From NCBI GenBank assembly GCA_944393695.1, contig CALYAY010000002.1, positions 46,244 to 110,243 of the forward strand: a DNA stretch of 64,000 nt, given 5' to 3'. Made by a program: the position numbers and the translations under genes. Positions 3,822-64,000 of the stretch are shown piece by piece (positions within the stretch are counted from its first letter, which is position 1; each line of letters opens with the position of its first letter). The notes beneath the pieces are model-generated. The model had not been told where the DNA came from. It ran no database searches and saw nothing but the letters and a program-made list of their open reading frames with translations. This stretch comes from an uncultured Alphaproteobacteria bacterium (GTDB lineage Bacteria; Pseudomonadota; Alphaproteobacteria; RF32; CAG-239).

Positions 3822-5813
3822 CTAAAACTCGATCACCGGCCGGACGTCATACTCTTTATCTTTCTGCGGATAATTGGTTAATCCGTATGTTCCGCCGAAA
3901 AACGACCTCCAGGCCCCCAGATCGGCCGTATATTCCGTTGACGTCCACAAGAAAGAATTACTCCCCAACTGCACACCACCGGCTCGTAAGAAACCGGCAT
4001 TAACAGCAGACATATTATTATTAATGCTGTACATAATTCCCGCCGCCGGCAGGCACCAGGCGCTCATTCCTCCGGCACTGTAACCGTCAGCCGCCCAGGC
4101 CGCCGGATAATGAAGATGATTTCCGGCATCAAGTATCTTATCCGTATTGCCGCAACTGTCAAAATCCCCGCTGGCCGCCGAAGCTGACCCGTATCCTGGT
4201 AAATCGCCGATATCTCCGTAATCACCCCACTGATATGCCCCAATAGACTTCAAAGCCATTGCCCAGCATATCTCTTTATCTCGACTCTTATATCTGTACA
4301 CCACAACGCCAACCGGAGTTTTTCCGGAAACTTTTTCTGTACCGCAACTTCCGTCGCTGAAAAAAATATCTCCGATTTGACAATTCGCCGTACACCCTTT
4401 GTCTTCCTGCACAACCACCTTTTCGCAAATTCCGTTTTTCCAGACATATCCCGAGGCGCAACGGCATGACTGATATTTTCCGTCGCAGGATGAGCCGGAA
4501 CCGCCGGTTTCGTTGGCACCGCTGCAAGTATATTTATATGAGGAATCGCAGGTGCAGGTTTGAGAACTTGCATTCCAGACATAGCCCGACTGACAGCCGT
4601 TTTTGCAGTATTTGTTGGAACATTCCTCTTTCTTACAGGTGTAAGGGGATGGACATGAATCCATGGAACATTCATTGGGACAAGGTTTGCAGTTGTCATA
4701 TTTAATTTCAGTTCCCGATTGACAGGTGTTTGCGCCGGCTTCGGGCCCCATGCTGCCGCAATCCATATATCCCTCACAGGGATTAGGTTTGATTTTGTAC
4801 TTGGTCTTGCCGTCGCAGTCCAGACAAGCCTCGCCGTCTTGTACATAGCCTTCGGGAATGGTCGTATAATCATATCCCGCACCGCAGGGTGTACATTCAC
4901 AGGAAGCATATTTTCCGTCGCAGGCCTCTCCCACTCCATGATAAGGAGGCTCGCAAGTGACGTAATCACTGGGGCAAAGGGCCCGACAATATTCGAAATA
5001 ACGATTATCATACGGGCAGAAATTAACCGCCTCATATCCTTCTGGACAGGAGGTTTTCGTGTATCCTTCTTCTTCGCAGCGTTTCTCGTCATCAAGTTCA
5101 TAATCATCACCGCCGCCGGGAGGCACCCCGCCATTATCCTCATCGGCATTATTCCCAACAAACTCATTCCCGGAACAGTTGGTTATATCCGTCACAAAAC
5201 ACGCCGCCGCAAGTTGGATAAGATTGTTGTTGTCTCCCTCACCCTGCCCCTCTCCCCTCAAGGAAGAGGTATTTCTTTCAATGTCATACTCCAACTTGAT
5301 TGGAGTATCCAGGTCAGATAAAGCAGCTGATTTATTCCACCTGGATCCTCGGGTTAAACCCGAGGATGACTGTTTTGTTTTTTCTTCCCTCCCTAAAGAT
5401 TTAGGGCTGGAGGCAGAAAATATCTCCGACGGAGATATTTTCAACGACAGGCGAGAGTTTGTTAACTCATAAGCTAGCGGCAGCGAAGCGAAATGAGCGT
5501 TACAAACCGAATGACCGCAGCGACTTAGTGTTGCCCTTCCGGCAACACTTACGGAGCCAGAGGTAAGGGAGGGTTTGAAACCCTCTCTGTCTCTCCCTGA
5601 GTTTTCAGGGAGAGTAAGTTCGGCAAAATCTTCAAGTGAAGACAAATGTCCGGCCGTGAGGTGTGAAGTGTGTGTAGAAACATGTGATTTAAGCAAAGCC
5701 GGACTTAATGACAAAGGCGTATCATCAGGATTAAAACCAGCGTAACACAAATCAGCTCCGGCAATGAAGGGCATGCACGAAACCGACAACATGAGAACAG
5801 TCTTATTCATCAT
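3822..5813 (-). CDS. Secreted Cys-rich protein with a DUF1566/Lcl-C-like C-terminal domain; its N-terminal linker is built from palindromic repeats
   Basis: The ORF is open to 5849, but its paralog at 61996 starts at the homologous MMN... and shares the upstream motif ATAAGATTCGTGAAGACAA, so the start is placed at 5813. Signal peptide, many Cys (CP.GY..C, CEPPY.GVGEAC.GKYASCE), C-terminal block WCLPAAG...WTST...VRPVIEF resembling DUF1566 (family name from memory). Inserted between secY and rplO. Confidence 0.7.
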   Translation of the reverse strand: MMNKTVLMLSVSCMPFIAGADLCYAGFNPDDTPLSLSPALLKSHVSTHTSHLTAGHLSSLEDFAELTLPENSGRDREGFKPSLTSGSVSVAGRATLSRCGHSVCNAHFASLPLAYELTNSRLSLKISPSEIFSASSPKSLGREEKTKQSSSGLTRGSRWNKSAALSDLDTPIKLEYDIERNTSSLRGEGQGEGDNNNLIQLAAACFVTDITNCSGNEFVGNNADEDNGGVPPGGGDDYELDDEKRCEEEGYTKTSCPEGYEAVNFCPYDNRYFEYCRALCPSDYVTCEPPYHGVGEACDGKYASCECTPCGAGYDYTTIPEGYVQDGEACLDCDGKTKYKIKPNPCEGYMDCGSMGPEAGANTCQSGTEIKYDNCKPCPNECSMDSCPSPYTCKKEECSNKYCKNGCQSGYVWNASSQTCTCDSSYKYTCSGANETGGSGSSCDGKYQSCRCASGYVWKNGICEKVVVQEDKGCTANCQIGDIFFSDGSCGTEKVSGKTPVGVVVYRYKSRDKEICWAMALKSIGAYQWGDYGDIGDLPGYGSASAASGDFDSCGNTDKILDAGNHLHYPAAWAADGYSAGGMSAWCLPAAGIMYSINNNMSAVNAGFLRAGGVQLGSNSFLWTSTEYTADLGAWRSFFGGTYGLTNYPQKDKEYDVRPVIEF
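5282..5640. repeat. Mosaic of short palindromic repeat units lying inside the 5' coding region of the 3822-5813 gene
   Basis: 5282-5371 is near-identical to 63121-63209, and 5387-5530 to 61491-61632. Hairpin units include GGATCCTCGGGTTAAACCCGAGGATG, CATACTCCAACTTGATTGGAGTATG, CCCTCCCTAAAGATTTAGGGCTGGAGG, GTTGCCGGAAGGGCAAC, GGGTTTCAAACCC, CTCCCTGAGTTTTCAGGGAG. Confidence 0.8.
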
Positions 5814-5839
5814 AATAGCACCTCTGTTATTAATTACAT

Positions 5840-5858
5840 TTGTCTTCACGAATCTTAT
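5840..5858 (-). promoter_or_regulatory. Conserved upstream motif ATAAGATTCGTGAAGACAA shared by the two Cys-rich family genes (copy 1)
   Basis: Identical 19-mer about 25 nt upstream of the MMN start here and at 61956-61974. Confidence 0.45.
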
Positions 5859-5962
5859 AATAACAGAAAATTTGAGCGTTGTAAATCACTATTTTAATCT
5901 AAAGACCATAATTTAAACTAAAAATGAGGTTCCTTTTCGAAACCTCATTTTTTCTAAACATC

Positions 5963-48219: not shown

Positions 48220-48723
48220 ATGAAAATGTTCTTAACAGCCATATTCGGCTTATTTCTTTTTATAGGCACCGCCAGGGCCGAACAGTCCGACGGCAGTGAA
48301 ACCGGCCTGGCTCTGCCGCGCATGGTTTCCCTGCGTTCAAATCTGATTAATGCCCGGTCCGGTCCCGGCGCGCGTTATCCGATTGAATGGGTCTATCAGC
48401 AAAAAACCGCCCCGGTGGAAATTATTGCCGAATTTGAACTCTGGCGCAAAATCAAAGACTGGGAAGGCTCGGAATCCTGGGTGCACAAAACCATGCTCTC
48501 CGGCCAGCGCACCATCAAGATGACAGCCAAAGGCGAAAGCAACATATACAACAAAGATGATTACAAATCTCAGGTCATTGCCAAAGTTGAAGACGGAGTT
48601 GTCGGGCTGATCAAAAAATGTTCGTCCGGCAGCGAATTCTGCCTGATTCAGTTTGACAATGTTGAAGGCTGGGTTCCCCGCCGCAATTTCTTCGGCACCT
48701 ACCCTGACGAAGCAATCAATTAA
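48220..48723 (+). CDS. SH3 domain-containing periplasmic protein
   Basis: Signal peptide plus a ~60-aa bacterial SH3-like segment (LRSNLINARSGPGARYPIEWVYQQK). Common small alphaproteobacterial protein. Confidence 0.6.
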   Translation: MKMFLTAIFGLFLFIGTARAEQSDGSETGLALPRMVSLRSNLINARSGPGARYPIEWVYQQKTAPVEIIAEFELWRKIKDWEGSESWVHKTMLSGQRTIKMTAKGESNIYNKDDYKSQVIAKVEDGVVGLIKKCSSGSEFCLIQFDNVEGWVPRRNFFGTYPDEAIN

Positions 48724-48729
48724 CACATT

Positions 48730-49076
48730 CACAAGCCCGGCCTCCGGGCTTTTTTCTTTCCTCTCATCCCCATCCTCTTTTCCTCACCCTCCTTTCTTCA
48801 TGCCACCCTCAGTCTCTTCTCTTTTGTCATCCTCGGGTTAAACCCGAGGATCCAAGTAAAAAAATCATCCTTTTATCCTCCCCTAAAACATTAGCCCCCT
48901 AACTTATTCTCCCCCTATAGTTATAGGGGGAATTAGAGGGGGTATGGCAATGTCATCCCTCGTTCAGCGTCAGTCTGAACGTCAGGGGATCTTCCTTATT
49001 GCCCTCTCCCCTTTCAAAAGGGGAGCCGGTGGGGTCAAATATCAGCCGCTTTTCTCACCTCTCCTCTCAAGGGTGA
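48730..49076. repeat. Intergenic cluster of the same palindromic repeat family upstream of family copy B
   Basis: 48826-48853 is the CCTCGGG..CCCGAGG hairpin. 48951-49047 is near-identical to 61693-61788 (hairpins CGTTCAGCGTCAGTCTGAACG and CTCCCCTTTCAAAAGGGGAG). Also CCCCCTATAGTTATAGGGGG and CACCTCTCCTCTCAAGGGTGAGG. Confidence 0.8.
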
Positions 49077-49129
49077 GGATATAAGGAGAAACAAATATTA
49101 TTAACAACTAATATAAAAGGAGAAAGGTT
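49077..49129 (+). promoter_or_regulatory. Duplicated 5' leader/RBS region of the DUF1566-like genes (copy at 63395-63448)
   Basis: GGATATAAGGAGAAACAAATATTATTAACAACTAATATAAAAGGAGAAAGGTT then ATG. Near-identical at 63395-63448. Confidence 0.5.
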
Positions 49130-49945
49130 ATGAAGAAGATATTATTGGCGAGTGTCGGAATTATAATAAGCACAGGAACAACATATGCCGCGTGTATCCC
49201 GACGCCGAGTTGTTCAAGTTTGGGATATGAAAGCTCCTCATCCTGCGAGGGCGGGCTCAAATGTCCGTTCGGCAATGCCTGGAACTGCACTTTGGTAAAC
49301 AAAATTACTGAAATCACTACCGAGATAACCGAAATCAAAAAAGTGATTGAAGAAGGCGGTGTCGGAGGTGGTAATAAAAACTGCCAGATTGGAAACATCT
49401 ATTATTCTGACAAAACCTGTTCTGTATCTTTGGACAGTTCCAAAACCCCGATTGGCGTGGTGGTTTATGTCGATGGCCAGGGACATGGGCAAGTGATGGC
49501 GTTGAAGTCAATAGGTAAGAATCAATGGGGATCAACGAATGTTGATATTCCGACCTTGACTAACTTTAGCAGTGATGAAAGTGCGAGTTACGATTTGAGC
49601 AGCTGTGCTAATACCCAGAAGATTATGACAGCCGGTGATAAGAGTACTTATCCGGCGGCTTGGGCGGCACACGAGTATAAAACCGAGGGAACGGAAGCCG
49701 GTGACTGGTGCCTGCCAGCAGCCGGTGTATTTACTTCATACTACAATAATCAACAGTTGGTTAATATCGGTATGACGAACGCCGGAGGCACTCAGATAGG
49801 TGAGTATACCTATATCTGGTCGTCTTCCGAATGCGGTAGCGGCAACGTGTGGACCTCGGATTTCCGCCACGACTACGGGGTGAGCGACGGCTATGGCAGT
49901 AAGCTTAGCAGAGGCAACGAGGTTCGACCGGTGCTGGAATTTTAA
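49130..49945 (+). CDS. Secreted DUF1566/Lcl-C-like protein (family copy B)
   Basis: 271 aa. Signal peptide, short Cys-rich N-terminus, C-terminus DWCLPAAGVF...IWSSSE...EVRPVLEF. 5' region and upstream 53 bp nearly identical to the gene at 63449. Confidence 0.7.
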   Translation: MKKILLASVGIIISTGTTYAACIPTPSCSSLGYESSSSCEGGLKCPFGNAWNCTLVNKITEITTEITEIKKVIEEGGVGGGNKNCQIGNIYYSDKTCSVSLDSSKTPIGVVVYVDGQGHGQVMALKSIGKNQWGSTNVDIPTLTNFSSDESASYDLSSCANTQKIMTAGDKSTYPAAWAAHEYKTEGTEAGDWCLPAAGVFTSYYNNQQLVNIGMTNAGGTQIGEYTYIWSSSECGSGNVWTSDFRHDYGVSDGYGSKLSRGNEVRPVLEF

Positions 49946-57292: not shown

Positions 57293-57343
57293 AAAAAACC
57301 GCCCTTTCGGACGGCCTTTTTAATTGGAGCGGGCAATGGGATT
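57293..57343 (-). repeat. Direct-repeat copy 1: tRNA-Gly 3' terminal 20 nt plus its downstream terminator
   Basis: AAAAAAACCGCCCTTTCGGACGGCCTTTTTAATTGGAGCGGGCAATGGGATT is identical to 57470-57520. Confidence 0.8.
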
Positions 57344-57469: not shown

Positions 57470-57520
57470 AAAAACCGCCCTTTCGGACGGCCTTTTTAAT
57501 TGGAGCGGGCAATGGGATTC
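57470..57520 (-). repeat. Direct-repeat copy 2: native tRNA-Gly 3' end and terminator
   Basis: See copy 1. The hairpin GGCCGTCCGAAAGGGCGG plus T-run acts as a terminator on the minus strand. Confidence 0.8.
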
Positions 57521-57575
57521 GGACCCACGACATCAACCTTGGCAAGGTTGCGCTCTACCCCTGAGCTATACCCGC
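57501..57575 (-). tRNA. tRNA-Gly (anticodon GCC)
   Basis: Minus strand reads GCGGGTATAGCTCAGGGGTAGAGCGCAACCTTGCCAAGGTTGATGTCGTGGGTCCGAATCCCATTGCCCGCTCCA. Confidence 0.88.
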
Positions 57576-61289: not shown

Positions 61290-61955
61290 TTTCCTCTTAA
61301 AGCTTACCCGCCAACTATAAAAAAAAGATTAATCTGCTGCAAAATTTCCTGTTTCTGATTTTTCTCCCTGAAAACTCATCCTCTCTCCCGTCATCCCCAC
61401 CCTTTCCTTCTTTATGTCATCCTCGGGTTTAACCCGAGGATCCAGGTCAAACCTATTATCCTCCCCCCTAAAACCTTTTCTCCATATTTCCCCTCCCTAA
61501 AGTTTTAGGGCTGGAGGCAGAAAATATCTCCGGTGGAGATATTTTCAACGACAGGCGAGAGTTTGTTAGCTCATGAGCTAGCGACAGCAACGCGAAATGA
61601 GCGTTACAAACCGAGTGACCGCAGCGACTTAGCAAACGCAGTGAGCTTAGGAGCCAGAAGGTCGGGAAGGGTTTCACATTCAAATAAAAACTGTCATCCC
61701 TCGTTCAGCGCCAGTCTGAACGTCAGGGGATCTTCTTTATTGCCCTCTCCCCTTTCAAAAGGGGAGCCGGTGGGGTTAAATATTAGCCTTATATCCTCTC
61801 CCTCACCCACGTCACTCCGTTCCGCGACCTCTCCCCTCCCTAAAGACTTAGGGAGGGGTTGGGGAGGGTTTCATTCATACTCAAATAAAACCCCGTCCAT
61901 TTTCCCGTCATTATATTTAAAATATACATTGATTATTTGTAAAATATCTGCTAAT
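61290..61955. repeat. Palindromic repeat cluster (with a relic gene 5' fragment) upstream of the 61996 gene
   Basis: Contains copies of units seen at 5344-5371, 5387-5530 and 48951-49047, plus CCCTCCCTAAAGACTTAGGGAGGGGTTGGGGAGGG. The minus-strand ORF at 61468-61683 is the translated repeat. Confidence 0.8.
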
Positions 61956-61974
61956 ATAAGATTCGTGAAGACAA
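61956..61974 (+). promoter_or_regulatory. Conserved upstream motif ATAAGATTCGTGAAGACAA (copy 2)
   Basis: See 5840-5858. Confidence 0.45.
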
Positions 61975-61995
61975 CAACAAGACAAAGGTGATATT

Positions 61996-63057
61996 ATGAT
62001 GAACAGTAACAAAGCATTATTGCTTATTTCAGCATCAGGGCTGCTGCTTATGCCCTGCGGCATATCTTTGGCAGCTTATTTGCCTCAGTCATCTCTTCCG
62101 GATGCGATTACATCTGTCTATAACACACACTTCACACACACCTCTCACCCGGGGGAAGTGTTGTTGTCTTCTGCCTTTTATCCTCTCCCTGAAAACTCAG
62201 GGAGCTCTCTATTCTACCCCCTCCCTAAAAACTTAGGGAGGGGTTGGGGAGGGTTTCACAACACCACCCTTATCCAACTCGCTGCGACTTGTTTTGTGAC
62301 CGATACCTCGGCCTGTTCGGGCAACGAGTTTTCCGGCAATAATGCCGATGATGACGGACATGGTGCTCCCGGCGGTCCCGGAGACGGTGACGATTATGAG
62401 CTTGATAATAAAGAGCGTTGCAATAAAGAGGGCTATTATCTGACTTCATGCCCGGACGGACAAGAGGGTTCAGGTTTCTGCCCCTATGACAACGGTTATT
62501 TCGAAAAATGTGTTTCGTCCTGTCCTTCAAATTATGTGACCTGTGAACCGCCTTACTATGGCGTGGGTGAGGCTTGTAACGGTAAATATGCCTCTTGTGA
62601 AAAAGACACTGAGCGCGCCTGTCAGGAATTAAACCCCGGTTATGTCGATGAATGCGGCACCGGACAACAATTAAGCGATGACAGATGTTCTTATGATAGC
62701 TCTTACGGCACCTGTTGTAATACTTGTGAGGGTTACGATAACACCACTATTTCCGAGGGCTATGTGCAAGACGGCGAGGCCTGCACCGGCTGCGACGGTC
62801 AGGAACATTATAAGATAAAACCCAACCCGTGTGACGGATTTATGGACTGCGGCTCCATGGGCGGCGAAGCCGGAGCGAAGACCTGCCTGTCGGGGACAAC
62901 CACCATGTACGACAATTGTAAGGCCTGTCCCAACTTGGGAGAATACACTACCTGTCCGAGCTGTACCATATGCCAGTATGAAGAATGCTCCGGTCTGTGG
63001 TATGCCACCGGCTGTGCCACGAATTGTACGGATTATTGTGACTTCTGCGGCGGGTGA
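61996..63057 (+). CDS. Secreted Cys-rich protein homologous to the N-terminal two-thirds of the 3822-5813 protein; lacks the DUF1566-like domain
   Basis: 353 aa. Signal peptide. Shared blocks THTSH, LPENSG, LIQLAATCFVTD, CSGNEF, DDYELD, FCPYDN.YFE.C, CEPPYYGVGEAC.GKYASCE. Same upstream motif ATAAGATTCGTGAAGACAA. A palindromic repeat is translated in-frame as PLPKNLGRGWGGFH. Confidence 0.65.
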   Translation: MMNSNKALLLISASGLLLMPCGISLAAYLPQSSLPDAITSVYNTHFTHTSHPGEVLLSSAFYPLPENSGSSLFYPLPKNLGRGWGGFHNTTLIQLAATCFVTDTSACSGNEFSGNNADDDGHGAPGGPGDGDDYELDNKERCNKEGYYLTSCPDGQEGSGFCPYDNGYFEKCVSSCPSNYVTCEPPYYGVGEACNGKYASCEKDTERACQELNPGYVDECGTGQQLSDDRCSYDSSYGTCCNTCEGYDNTTISEGYVQDGEACTGCDGQEHYKIKPNPCDGFMDCGSMGGEAGAKTCLSGTTTMYDNCKACPNLGEYTTCPSCTICQYEECSGLWYATGCATNCTDYCDFCGG

Positions 63058-63394
63058 GGGGATTGCTGCTTATTTCCTCGCCCTTGAGGGGAGAGGTAAG
63101 GAAGGAGGAAAAGTAAACACTGTCATACTCCAACTTGATTGGAGTATCCAGGTTAGATAAAGCAGCTGTTTCATTCCACCTGGATCCTCGGGGCAAGCCC
63201 GAGGATGACAAAGAGAGAGGGTGAGGATGGCAGAGAAAGAAAGGAGCCGGGAATGACATTGTCCCTTTTACCTCTCCCTTGAGGGGAGAGGTCGCGAAAC
63301 AGAGTGACGCGGGTGAGGGTGAAGAAAAAGCCCCCCCCTCCAACTCCCCCTAAGATTTTAGGGGGAGGGGGTAGAGCCCTAAGGTTTTAGGGAG
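63058..63394. repeat. Palindromic repeat cluster between the 61996 gene and family copy C
   Basis: CCTCGCCCTTGAGGGGAGAGG, the 63121-63209 composite unit, CCTCTCCCTTGAGGGGAGAGG, CCCCCTAAGATTTTAGGGGGAGGGGG. Confidence 0.8.
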
Positions 63395-63448
63395 AGGATA
63401 TAAGGAGAAAAAATATTATTAACAACTAATATAAAAAGGAGAAAGGTT

Positions 63449-64000
63449 ATGAGAAAGATATTATTAGCGGGTGTAGGAATTATAATAAGTACAGGAACAG
63501 CATATGCAGCCTGTATCCCGACGCCGAGTTGTTCAAGTTTAGGCTATGAAAGTTCCTCATCATGTGAAGGCGGGATTAAATGCCCCTTCGGCAATGCCTG
63601 GAATTGCACTTTGGTAAACAAAATTACTGAAATCACTACCGAGATAACCGAAATCAAAAAAGTGATTGAAGAAGGCGGCATTGGAGGAAAAGGCGACACT
63701 TCAAACTGCGTTGTCGGCTCAATTTTCTACTCTGATTGGACTTGTTCATACGGAAGTGTTATTGCAACCAAAGCACCTATCGGTGTCGTGATTTACAGCG
63801 ATAATGCCGGACATGGACAGGTTATGGCTCTGAATAGTATCGGTACTTATAAGTGGGGTGGATATGGCACGGATATTCCAACGCTTCAGAACTTTACATC
63901 AGCTTCGGTTGCTTCTCAGGATTTGGCAAGCTGTAAAAATACAGCTAAAATTATTGCAGCCGGTGATAAGAATAAATATCCAGCAGCTTGGGCAGCACAC
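63449..64000 (+). CDS. Secreted DUF1566/Lcl-C-like protein (family copy C, 3' partial at the window end)
   Basis: N-terminal ~80 aa and upstream 53 bp nearly identical to the gene at 49130. Diverges after EEGG. PAAWAAH at the window end matches the family. Confidence 0.65.
   Translation, partial: MRKILLAGVGIIISTGTAYAACIPTPSCSSLGYESSSSCEGGIKCPFGNAWNCTLVNKITEITTEITEIKKVIEEGGIGGKGDTSNCVVGSIFYSDWTCSYGSVIATKAPIGVVIYSDNAGHGQVMALNSIGTYKWGGYGTDIPTLQNFTSASVASQDLASCKNTAKIIAAGDKNKYPAAWAAH

Follow-up and report, generated by a model that had tools for sequence, protein, structure and literature searches.

We analyzed 64,000 nucleotides (nt) of contig CALYAY010000002.1 from assembly GCA_944393695.1, an uncultured member of the Alphaproteobacteria; this whole stretch is referred to here as the window. 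It carries two paralogous genes, B and C, which are nearly identical at their 5′ ends and diverge abruptly after about 77 codons. Gene B was recognized from its open reading frame (ORF) and a homologue search. Gene C is cut by the window end; its full-length product of 273 aa is known from other assemblies (P0137/P0110). Lying 14.3 kb apart as direct repeats, the two genes enclose lepA, infA, and groESL, and each of the two is followed by a convergent gene, a GNAT gene after B and rpoC after C. The features of the pair are as follows.

49075-49129, plus strand: leader of gene B, starting where an upstream palindromic repeat ends, with the Shine-Dalgarno sequence AAGGAGAAAG
49095-49114 and 63413-63432, plus strand: 20-mer ATATTA-N8-TAATAT, a perfect 6-bp inverted repeat inside the leader
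49130-49945, plus strand: gene B, 271 aa, predicted secreted protein with a lectin-like head
49130-49189, plus strand: signal peptide of B, codons 1-20, ending in AxA
49190-49288, plus strand: five-cysteine N-terminal module of B (N-module), codons 21-53, ACIPTPSCSSLGYESSSSCEGGLKCPFGNAWNC
49286-49359, plus strand: longest exact B/C identity, 74 nt, its 3′ end being the breakpoint
49289-49360, plus strand: neck of B, codons 54-77, an isoleucine-rich heptad helix followed by GG
49382-49942, plus strand: head domain of B, codons 85-271, C-type-lectin-like fold of the Lcl_C/DUF1566 type
63394-63448, plus strand: leader of gene C, aligned with the B leader
63449 to beyond 64000, plus strand: gene C, paralog of B
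63605-63678, plus strand: C counterpart of the 74-nt exact tract, offset from B by 14319, no indel occurring upstream of codon 78

In a global alignment, the near-identity of B and C starts at 49075 and 63394, includes the 55-nt leader, runs through codon 77, and then falls abruptly. The leaders differ by a few substitutions and single-base indels, and the first 77 residues of the proteins by four replacements (K2R, S8G, T18A, and L43I; 73/77 identical). A maximum chi-squared scan placed the breakpoint at 49360 (chi-squared 91.4, reached in 0/500 permutations), with 92.3% identity over the 286 columns to its left and 58.4% over the 322 columns to its right. The boundary is sharp, far above chance, and the two genes remain homologous beyond it. 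An earlier note on this DNA had described such a boundary; its coordinates and quoted sequences were correct, and identity drops at a breakpoint rather than decaying gradually. Its statement that the 5′ ends are almost identical holds for the protein but not for the DNA throughout, exact identity being confined to 74 nt.

The age of the shared 5′ end is uneven. Nucleotide identity between B and C is 115/132 over codons 1-44, 21/24 over codons 45-52, 74/75 over codons 53-77, 92/159 over codons 78-130, and 96/153 over codons 131-181. Nei-Gojobori estimates of synonymous (dS) and nonsynonymous (dN) divergence, computed across the boundary, are dS 0.70 and dN 0.03 for codons 1-52 (16 synonymous differences), dS 0.06 and dN 0 for codons 53-77, and a saturated dS (proportion of synonymous differences, pS, 0.72) with dN 0.42 for codons 78-184. 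In the N-module alone, dN is 0.013 and dS 0.91. The signal peptide and cysteine module are thus alike in protein and old in DNA, and protein-level constraint accounts for the identity there. The neck segment and, largely, the noncoding leader are the sole young parts of the shared 5′ end.

Alleles at both loci were compared using contigs fetched for the closest relatives found in the protein search. The order SH3-domain gene, B, convergent GNAT gene, and lepA is syntenic in L045, L047, L058, L059, and L061-L065, and the C locus in L060 adjoins convergent rpoC; the L046 contig is too short for neighbors to be visible. The genes flanking B (ftsZ, M20 peptidase, SH3, GNAT, lepA, and histidine kinase) are 96.9-100% identical to those of the window, and at least 98.2% identical in all comparisons but one, indicating that the compared contigs are strains of one species. 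The 3′ domains of B and C are 97-100% conserved with respect to their own orthologs, compared with about 58-63% between B and C heads.

Against this background of conserved heads, the 5′ ends are mosaics. Over codons 1-44, the L045 allele of B matches C at 130/132 positions and window B at only 114/132, and over codons 53-77, the match to C is 74/75 for window B and 67/75 for L045 B. The neck of L047 B is unrelated to that of window B (43/75, 57% at the nucleotide level), and the first 20 head codons also differ; the L047-type neck is also present in other paralogs. From codon 131 onward (to 271), the window, L045, and L047 alleles are 95-100% identical. At the B locus of L058 and L059, the flanks are 98-99.5% identical, but the allele that they enclose has a 3′ part with only 81% identity. 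Clustering at 90% identity gave 15 alleles of B and 8 of C, in which nearly all variation lies in blocks within residues 1-85 and the heads are practically invariant. Signal peptides and necks each fall into a small number of block types, an exact seven-codon deletion among them, and the same types occur on B heads and on C heads. For example, the neck block (codons 45-77) is identical at 95/99 nt between L061 (a B allele) and L060 (a C allele), which come from different samples and have heads that are about 59% identical. The constant 5′ cassette with a variable 3′ domain proposed earlier therefore describes the comparison between paralogs, and it is reversed across strains at one locus, where the 5′ third varies in blocks and the head hardly at all.

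Statistical tests agree with shuffling of alleles at the strain level. Among 116 family representatives, there is essentially no correlation between the pairwise identities of the signal peptide, the neck, and the head (Spearman 0.03-0.15), and an approximate test of the pairwise homoplasy index (PHI) type on eight DNA sequences gave 0.399, compared with a permutation mean of 0.501 (sd 0.007). A similarly approximate GENECONV-like test found a run of 29 consecutive identical polymorphic sites between window B and the C ortholog at 49291-49359 (0/2000 permutations) and a 28-site run between L045 B and C at 49105-49183 (0/2000). The B and C loci vary between strains, and the strain mosaics together with these tests uphold the gene conversion or recombination breakpoint that had been suggested from the window.

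Two further observations concern these alleles. The B allele of L047 (10001-10723) stops early at 240 aa through a TGG to TGA change at W241, the same form being the cluster representative P0005, and it is possible that the B locus is pseudogenised in that strain. Exactly 21 nt (seven codons, one heptad) of the neck are missing in some paralogs and one C allele (L048 10001-10792, L057 5273-6091, and protein P0140), and in related species the necks consist of NKITE[LQI]T heptad repeats that vary in number. These sequence differences in heptad number suggest variation in stalk length.

The explanation that we consider probable is short-tract gene conversion among the paralog 5′ ends of two old sister genes, bounded by the end of homology. 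Purifying selection, very strong for the N-module and probably acting on the leader too, would keep 230-290 nt of the paralogs at 85-100% identity, which is enough for homologous recombination. Short nonreciprocal patches of leader, signal peptide, and neck would be copied repeatedly between family copies and strains, and the tracts would halt at the neck/head junction (49360), where the drop in identity to about 58% would prevent further extension and give the sharp boundary. The latest patch in the window genome would be 49286-49359, perhaps with the leader as well, and codons 1-44 of window B would have a different, older history. A crossover between the direct repeats B and C would delete essential genes, so only noncrossover, conversion-type events should be viable between them. 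The exchange would be intragenomic.

Several points weigh against this explanation. A second B/C breakpoint at about 49268 was marginal on the B/C pair alone (67/1000 permutations), and the synonymous-site contrast (16/35 vs. 1/16, Fisher p 0.009) used a partition picked post hoc, after the data had been seen. The PHI-type and run tests permute sites as though they were exchangeable, which they are not strictly, and polymorphisms in the conserved 5′ region are mostly two-state and synonymous. Every comparison allele is a short-read metagenome assembly. The near-invariant leader could reflect selection on regulation rather than conversion. The present data fit intragenomic conversion and inter-strain exchange alike. 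Localization, oligomeric state, and ligand binding of the proteins are putative, and the N-module is modeled with a predicted local distance difference test (pLDDT) score below 50.

Among the alternatives, the one that survives best holds that the patches arose mainly through homologous recombination with DNA of other strains and not through conversion between paralogs within a genome. The whole-allele replacement at B in L058 and L059 and the presence or absence, at the same site, of a partner gene described below show that the B locus takes up foreign alleles. The two loci of the window genome itself share the exact tract, however, and the occurrence of the same signal-peptide and neck types on B and C heads requires nonallelic exchange at some point. 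Inter-strain exchange and paralog conversion are not mutually exclusive, and as the main source of the patches we regard exchange between strains as rather unlikely.

It is less probable still that there was no recombination and that the boundary merely separates two domains of ancient paralogs under unequal selective constraint. The N-module is nearly invariant across the family (97.6%), yet dS between B and C within it is 0.9, so that constraint explains much of the identity at the protein level. Protein constraint cannot, however, yield 74 nt without synonymous change, and the tract is not constrained as DNA because B alleles of other strains differ inside 49286-49359. Moreover, paralogs share blocks in strain-specific combinations, and the PHI-type and run tests are significant.

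Programmed antigenic or phase variation, through silent cassettes, inversion, slippage repeats, or a diversity-generating retroelement (DGR) acting on the lectin fold, would fit the constant N-terminus, variable heads, multigene family, and strain variability, and DGRs frequently target DUF1566 and C-type-lectin folds (PMC4159848). We nevertheless consider it very improbable. Cassette antigenic variation of the pilE/pilS, vlsE, or msp2 type was rejected, as 11/11 examined copies of this species start with leader, Shine-Dalgarno sequence, ATG, and signal peptide; ORFs are full length in 10/11, the remaining one carrying a nonsense mutation. A DGR target was rejected as far as the 64-kb window shows: there, the 3′ ends of B and of a further family member, gene A, each lack a second, template-repeat copy, no ORF has a reverse-transcriptase motif, and the 3′ differences between paralogs involve all bases and codon positions and are not restricted to adenine. 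Slippage phase variation was likewise rejected, the coding 5′ ends having, on reading the sequence, no dinucleotide or tetranucleotide repeats and no notable homopolymer tract; only the A-run separating the 20-mer from the Shine-Dalgarno sequence varies in length, from 2 to 5 A. No sign of invertible DNA was seen among the copies examined. A programmed form of the surface variation suggested in the earlier note is not supported. A polymorphic toxin of the CdiA-CT or Rhs type was also rejected on the basis of the lectin-like C-terminal fold and the lack of a small same-strand ORF downstream of B or C.

The two remaining alternatives are the least credible. Recent duplication of one gene, as the earlier note had put forward, with rapid and positively selected divergence of the 3′ domain afterwards, fits the 73/77 identical first residues and the abrupt drop at first sight, but dS is saturated past codon 78 and 0.70 in codons 1-52, B and C occupy their own conserved loci in other strains with heads far closer to their orthologs than to each other, and related metagenome-assembled genomes (MAGs) hold 11-16 diverged copies. 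That the mosaic alleles are assembler chimeras formed at k-mers shared by paralogs could be argued from the short-read origin of all the data and from the many MAG copies at contig ends, where a shared 5′ end is hard for assemblers, but the 876 nt of the window B allele and its leader are found unchanged in three independent assemblies, representing two projects, and with 1-2 mismatches in two more, the L058 and L059 alleles are identical across projects, as are those of L056 and L057, and the shared stretches into which the L045 switch points fall are about 26 nt long, presumably short relative to typical final-graph k-mers.

The closest documented parallel to B and C is 5′ gene conversion among the bab genes of Helicobacter pylori, in which intragenomic conversion of babA, babB, and babC at about 60-240 bp from the start codon yields chimeric alleles that differ by strain (PMC4552749). 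In both cases, paralogs encoding exported proteins sit at fixed loci and carry strain-specific chimeric 5′ ends, and the exchanged zone of B and C is the leader plus about 230 bp of coding sequence. In contrast, the bab genes also share their 3′ ends, homology of this kind between B and C being limited to the 5′ end, and they carry CT repeats giving phase variation, which are missing in B and C. The proteins are unrelated: Bab is a beta-barrel outer-membrane adhesin and B and C are small, predicted secreted, lectin-like proteins.

All members of the family have a common layout of an AxA signal peptide, a 33-residue five-cysteine module, a variable linker, and, at the C-terminus, a domain of about 190 residues that ends in VRPVLEF. 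The signal peptide of B is probably cleaved by signal peptidase I, judging from its sequence. A lipoprotein reading of the motif YAAC was rejected, as in other subfamilies the first cysteine falls 0-3 residues past AxA and there is no conserved lipobox. The N-module follows the pattern C.P.P.C..LGY......C..G.KCPFG..W.C, with the family-wide figure of 97.6% given above being the mean pairwise identity of 116 representatives. It has no Pfam match. The neck of B is modeled by AlphaFold2 as a helix at residues 51-74, and its leucine and isoleucine residues at 55/59/62/66/69/73 show the 4-3-4-3-4 spacing of an a/d heptad pattern, nearly all of them isoleucine. Isoleucine at a/d heptad positions favors trimers in model peptides. 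The likeness to isoleucine-zipper peptides suggests that the B neck is trimeric, the model itself being of a monomer.

The head of B has a C-type-lectin-like fold that, in the predicted structure, can be superposed on the C-terminal domain of Lcl. Neither Pfam nor NCBIfam gave a direct match for B, C, A, or the partner; B, C, and A did not match PF07603 at E<=1, nor B at E<=10, and 24/56 close relatives matched it weakly (best E 3.7e-5), one relative having a precomputed PF07603 call. A protein search with B found 890 homologues, all without annotation and nearly all in gut metagenome assemblies from ENA. The family copies of related MAGs are often in tandem or at contig ends. Among loci L001-L044, many copies begin or finish exactly at contig ends, and 3-4 copies stand in tandem in L017, L020, L022, and L029; because copies are cut in this way, copy numbers from short-read MAGs are lower bounds. 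We read the B/C family as a large, unannotated group of secreted "lollipop" proteins of uncultured gut Alphaproteobacteria. We infer that they are trimeric, surface-exposed or secreted binding proteins, in which the N-module anchors or assembles the protein and the head binds a ligand.

The N-module is not restricted to one head. It is present in 112 representative clusters of 1.84 billion, always directly after the signal peptide; 69/112 have the lectin-like head, at least 12 have another head ending in ..TTF(N/K/Y) or a similar ..TF, and two have long, repeat-like C-termini. Signal peptide, five-cysteine module, and neck precede other C-terminal domains in P0146, P0157, P0164, P0166, P0168, P0174-P0176, P0180, P0184, and P0210, as well as in P0216 and P0236. 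The alternative head with the ..TTF(N/K/Y) or similar ..TF end is about 150 aa long and has no annotation. By analogy with a proposal for the invariant N-terminal domain of mosaic adhesive trimer (MAT) fibers, the N-module may serve different binding heads as their shared front end.

The overall design resembles that of Lcl of Legionella pneumophila, a secreted, trimeric, lollipop-shaped adhesin composed of an N-terminal anchor, a stalk, and a head that contains DUF1566 (PMC11162425). The outline is the same, but anchor and stalk differ. Lcl has an amphipathic helix at the N-terminus and collagen repeats in the stalk, in place of the five-cysteine module and the helix of about three heptads in B; the B-family head has conserved cysteines, whereas the Lcl C-terminal domain has no disulfides; and Lcl is a single gene, compared with at least 10 copies in the B family. 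The MAT fibers of Bdellovibrio bacteriovorus likewise make up a large set of paralogs; their N-terminal domain is invariant and is believed to keep the fiber attached to the cell, and "tip swapping" has been proposed for them (PMC10769870). The B-family N-module is similarly joined to at least three head types. However, MAT fibers are trimers of 600-1100 aa with beta-prism and beta-helix parts, in contrast to the short predicted coiled coil of the B proteins of about 270 aa, and no sequence relationship is known between the N-terminal parts. Membership of the MAT superfamily was rejected, B being 271 aa long with just a 24-residue helix between N-module and head, and the resemblance is limited to a lectin-fold tip and modular logic. 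A further relative in fold, Bacteroides ovatus BACOVA_04982 (PDB 4eps), is 14-17% identical in sequence to the B-family head; there the domain belongs to a protein of 497 aa whose deposition describes it as fimbrial, and B has no pilin-type body. The likeness to the eukaryotic collectins and tetranectin is an analogy of design only, with no evolutionary link, and B has no collagen region.

The remaining family-associated features of the window are the following.

3822-5849, minus strand: gene A, 675 aa, the third family member in the window, a partner-like region fused to a head
61996-63057, plus strand: cysteine-rich secreted "partner" gene, 353 aa, upstream of C
48760-49075, no strand: palindromic repeat array resembling repetitive extragenic palindromic (REP) elements, upstream of B, site of the 1.45-kb partner polymorphism
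63060-63395, no strand: REP-like repeat array from the partner to C, found in a repeat scan
5249-5528, 5840-5859, 48760-49075, 61415-61995, 62218-62258, and 63060-63395, no strand: all palindromic repeat blocks found in a scan of the window

The partner has 317 unannotated homologues, contains about 10% cysteine, and has no Pfam match; its AlphaFold2 model has a mean pLDDT of 41. In related species, only about 20 nt separate its stop codon from the ATG of the family gene downstream, which gives the two the character of an operon-like pair. The partner is present upstream of B in L047, L058, and L059 and absent in the window and L045, a difference that amounts to a 1.45-kb indel with junctions in short palindromic repeats (window 49047-49072 vs. 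L047 8500-9944). Partner-type proteins occur both as separate genes and fused to the lectin-like head, as in gene A and its relatives of 580-617 aa. Residues 186-421 of gene A are 54% identical to the partner and residues 489-675 are 45% identical to residues 84-271 of B. Gene A and the partner have their own shared upstream motif, TATAAGATTCGTGAAGACAA (5852-5871 on the minus strand and 61958-61977).

Within the 64-kb window, the palindromic repeats, for example CCTCTCCCTTGAGGGGAGAGG and CCCTAAGGTTTTAGGG, are found only beside or inside family genes. Two of the blocks are in frame with a coding region, one spanning about 280 nt of the N-terminal part of gene A and the other about 40 nt of the partner gene. 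They recall the in-frame palindromic elements of Rickettsia.

The leader has a core, AAATATTATTAACAACTAATAT, found in 11/11 family copies of this species. The 20-mer is likewise conserved in all 11 copies, followed by the A-run of variable length mentioned above, and in the window it occurs only at 49095 and 63413, with 0 occurrences expected by chance. On the basis of its sequence, it is possible that this 20-mer is an operator or promoter element. A consensus scan found no consensus sigma-70 promoter upstream of B, an Rfam search (E<=1) of 48700-49400 returned nothing, and the leader folds no better than shuffled sequence (z -0.08). Scanning the 21-nt leader core against JGI metagenome contigs gave chance AT-rich matches only and no relatives.

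Two observations concern the surroundings. A tRNA-Gly(GCC) gene lies at 57501-57575 on the minus strand, and a 19-nt exact copy of its 3′ end lies 158 nt away (176 nt start to start) at 57325-57343, which may be a remnant attachment site. In the region next to it, downstream of infA, L058 and L059 carry different genes, encoding a 688-aa HATPase_c_3 protein and a Bro-N protein.

A broader and doubtful proposal is that leader, signal peptide, five-cysteine module, and neck form a dedicated "universal front end" of undescribed collectin-like trimeric lectins of gut Alphaproteobacteria. Under this proposal, the cysteine module may dock all members to one surface or partner structure, possibly the cysteine-rich protein encoded upstream, which gene A joins to a head. 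The front-end DNA may be kept as a recombination handle that re-sorts heads and necks between loci and strains, the palindromic repeats around family genes may promote gain and loss of cassettes, and the inverted repeat in the 20-bp leader element may co-regulate the repertoire.

The recombination process itself is well known in other bacteria, and B and C are a new example of it in an undescribed protein family. A sharp boundary of identity between paralogs could here be resolved into constraint and patchy gene conversion using public metagenome assemblies alone. The main interest lies less in that boundary than in the family, with its architecture, partner gene, and hypervariability between strains. 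The analysis brings out a sizeable unannotated group (890 relatives of the head protein and 317 of the partner) confined to uncultured gut-associated Alphaproteobacteria, with an adhesin-like design of an Lcl-like lectin head on a short predicted coiled coil. Shuffling of signal peptides and necks may be useful, for example by changing stalk length, or may be a neutral by-product. The family loci are among the most variable between strains that are otherwise 98-99% identical, and if the heads bind host or microbial glycans, the family would be an obvious candidate for a part in strain-specific niche adaptation.

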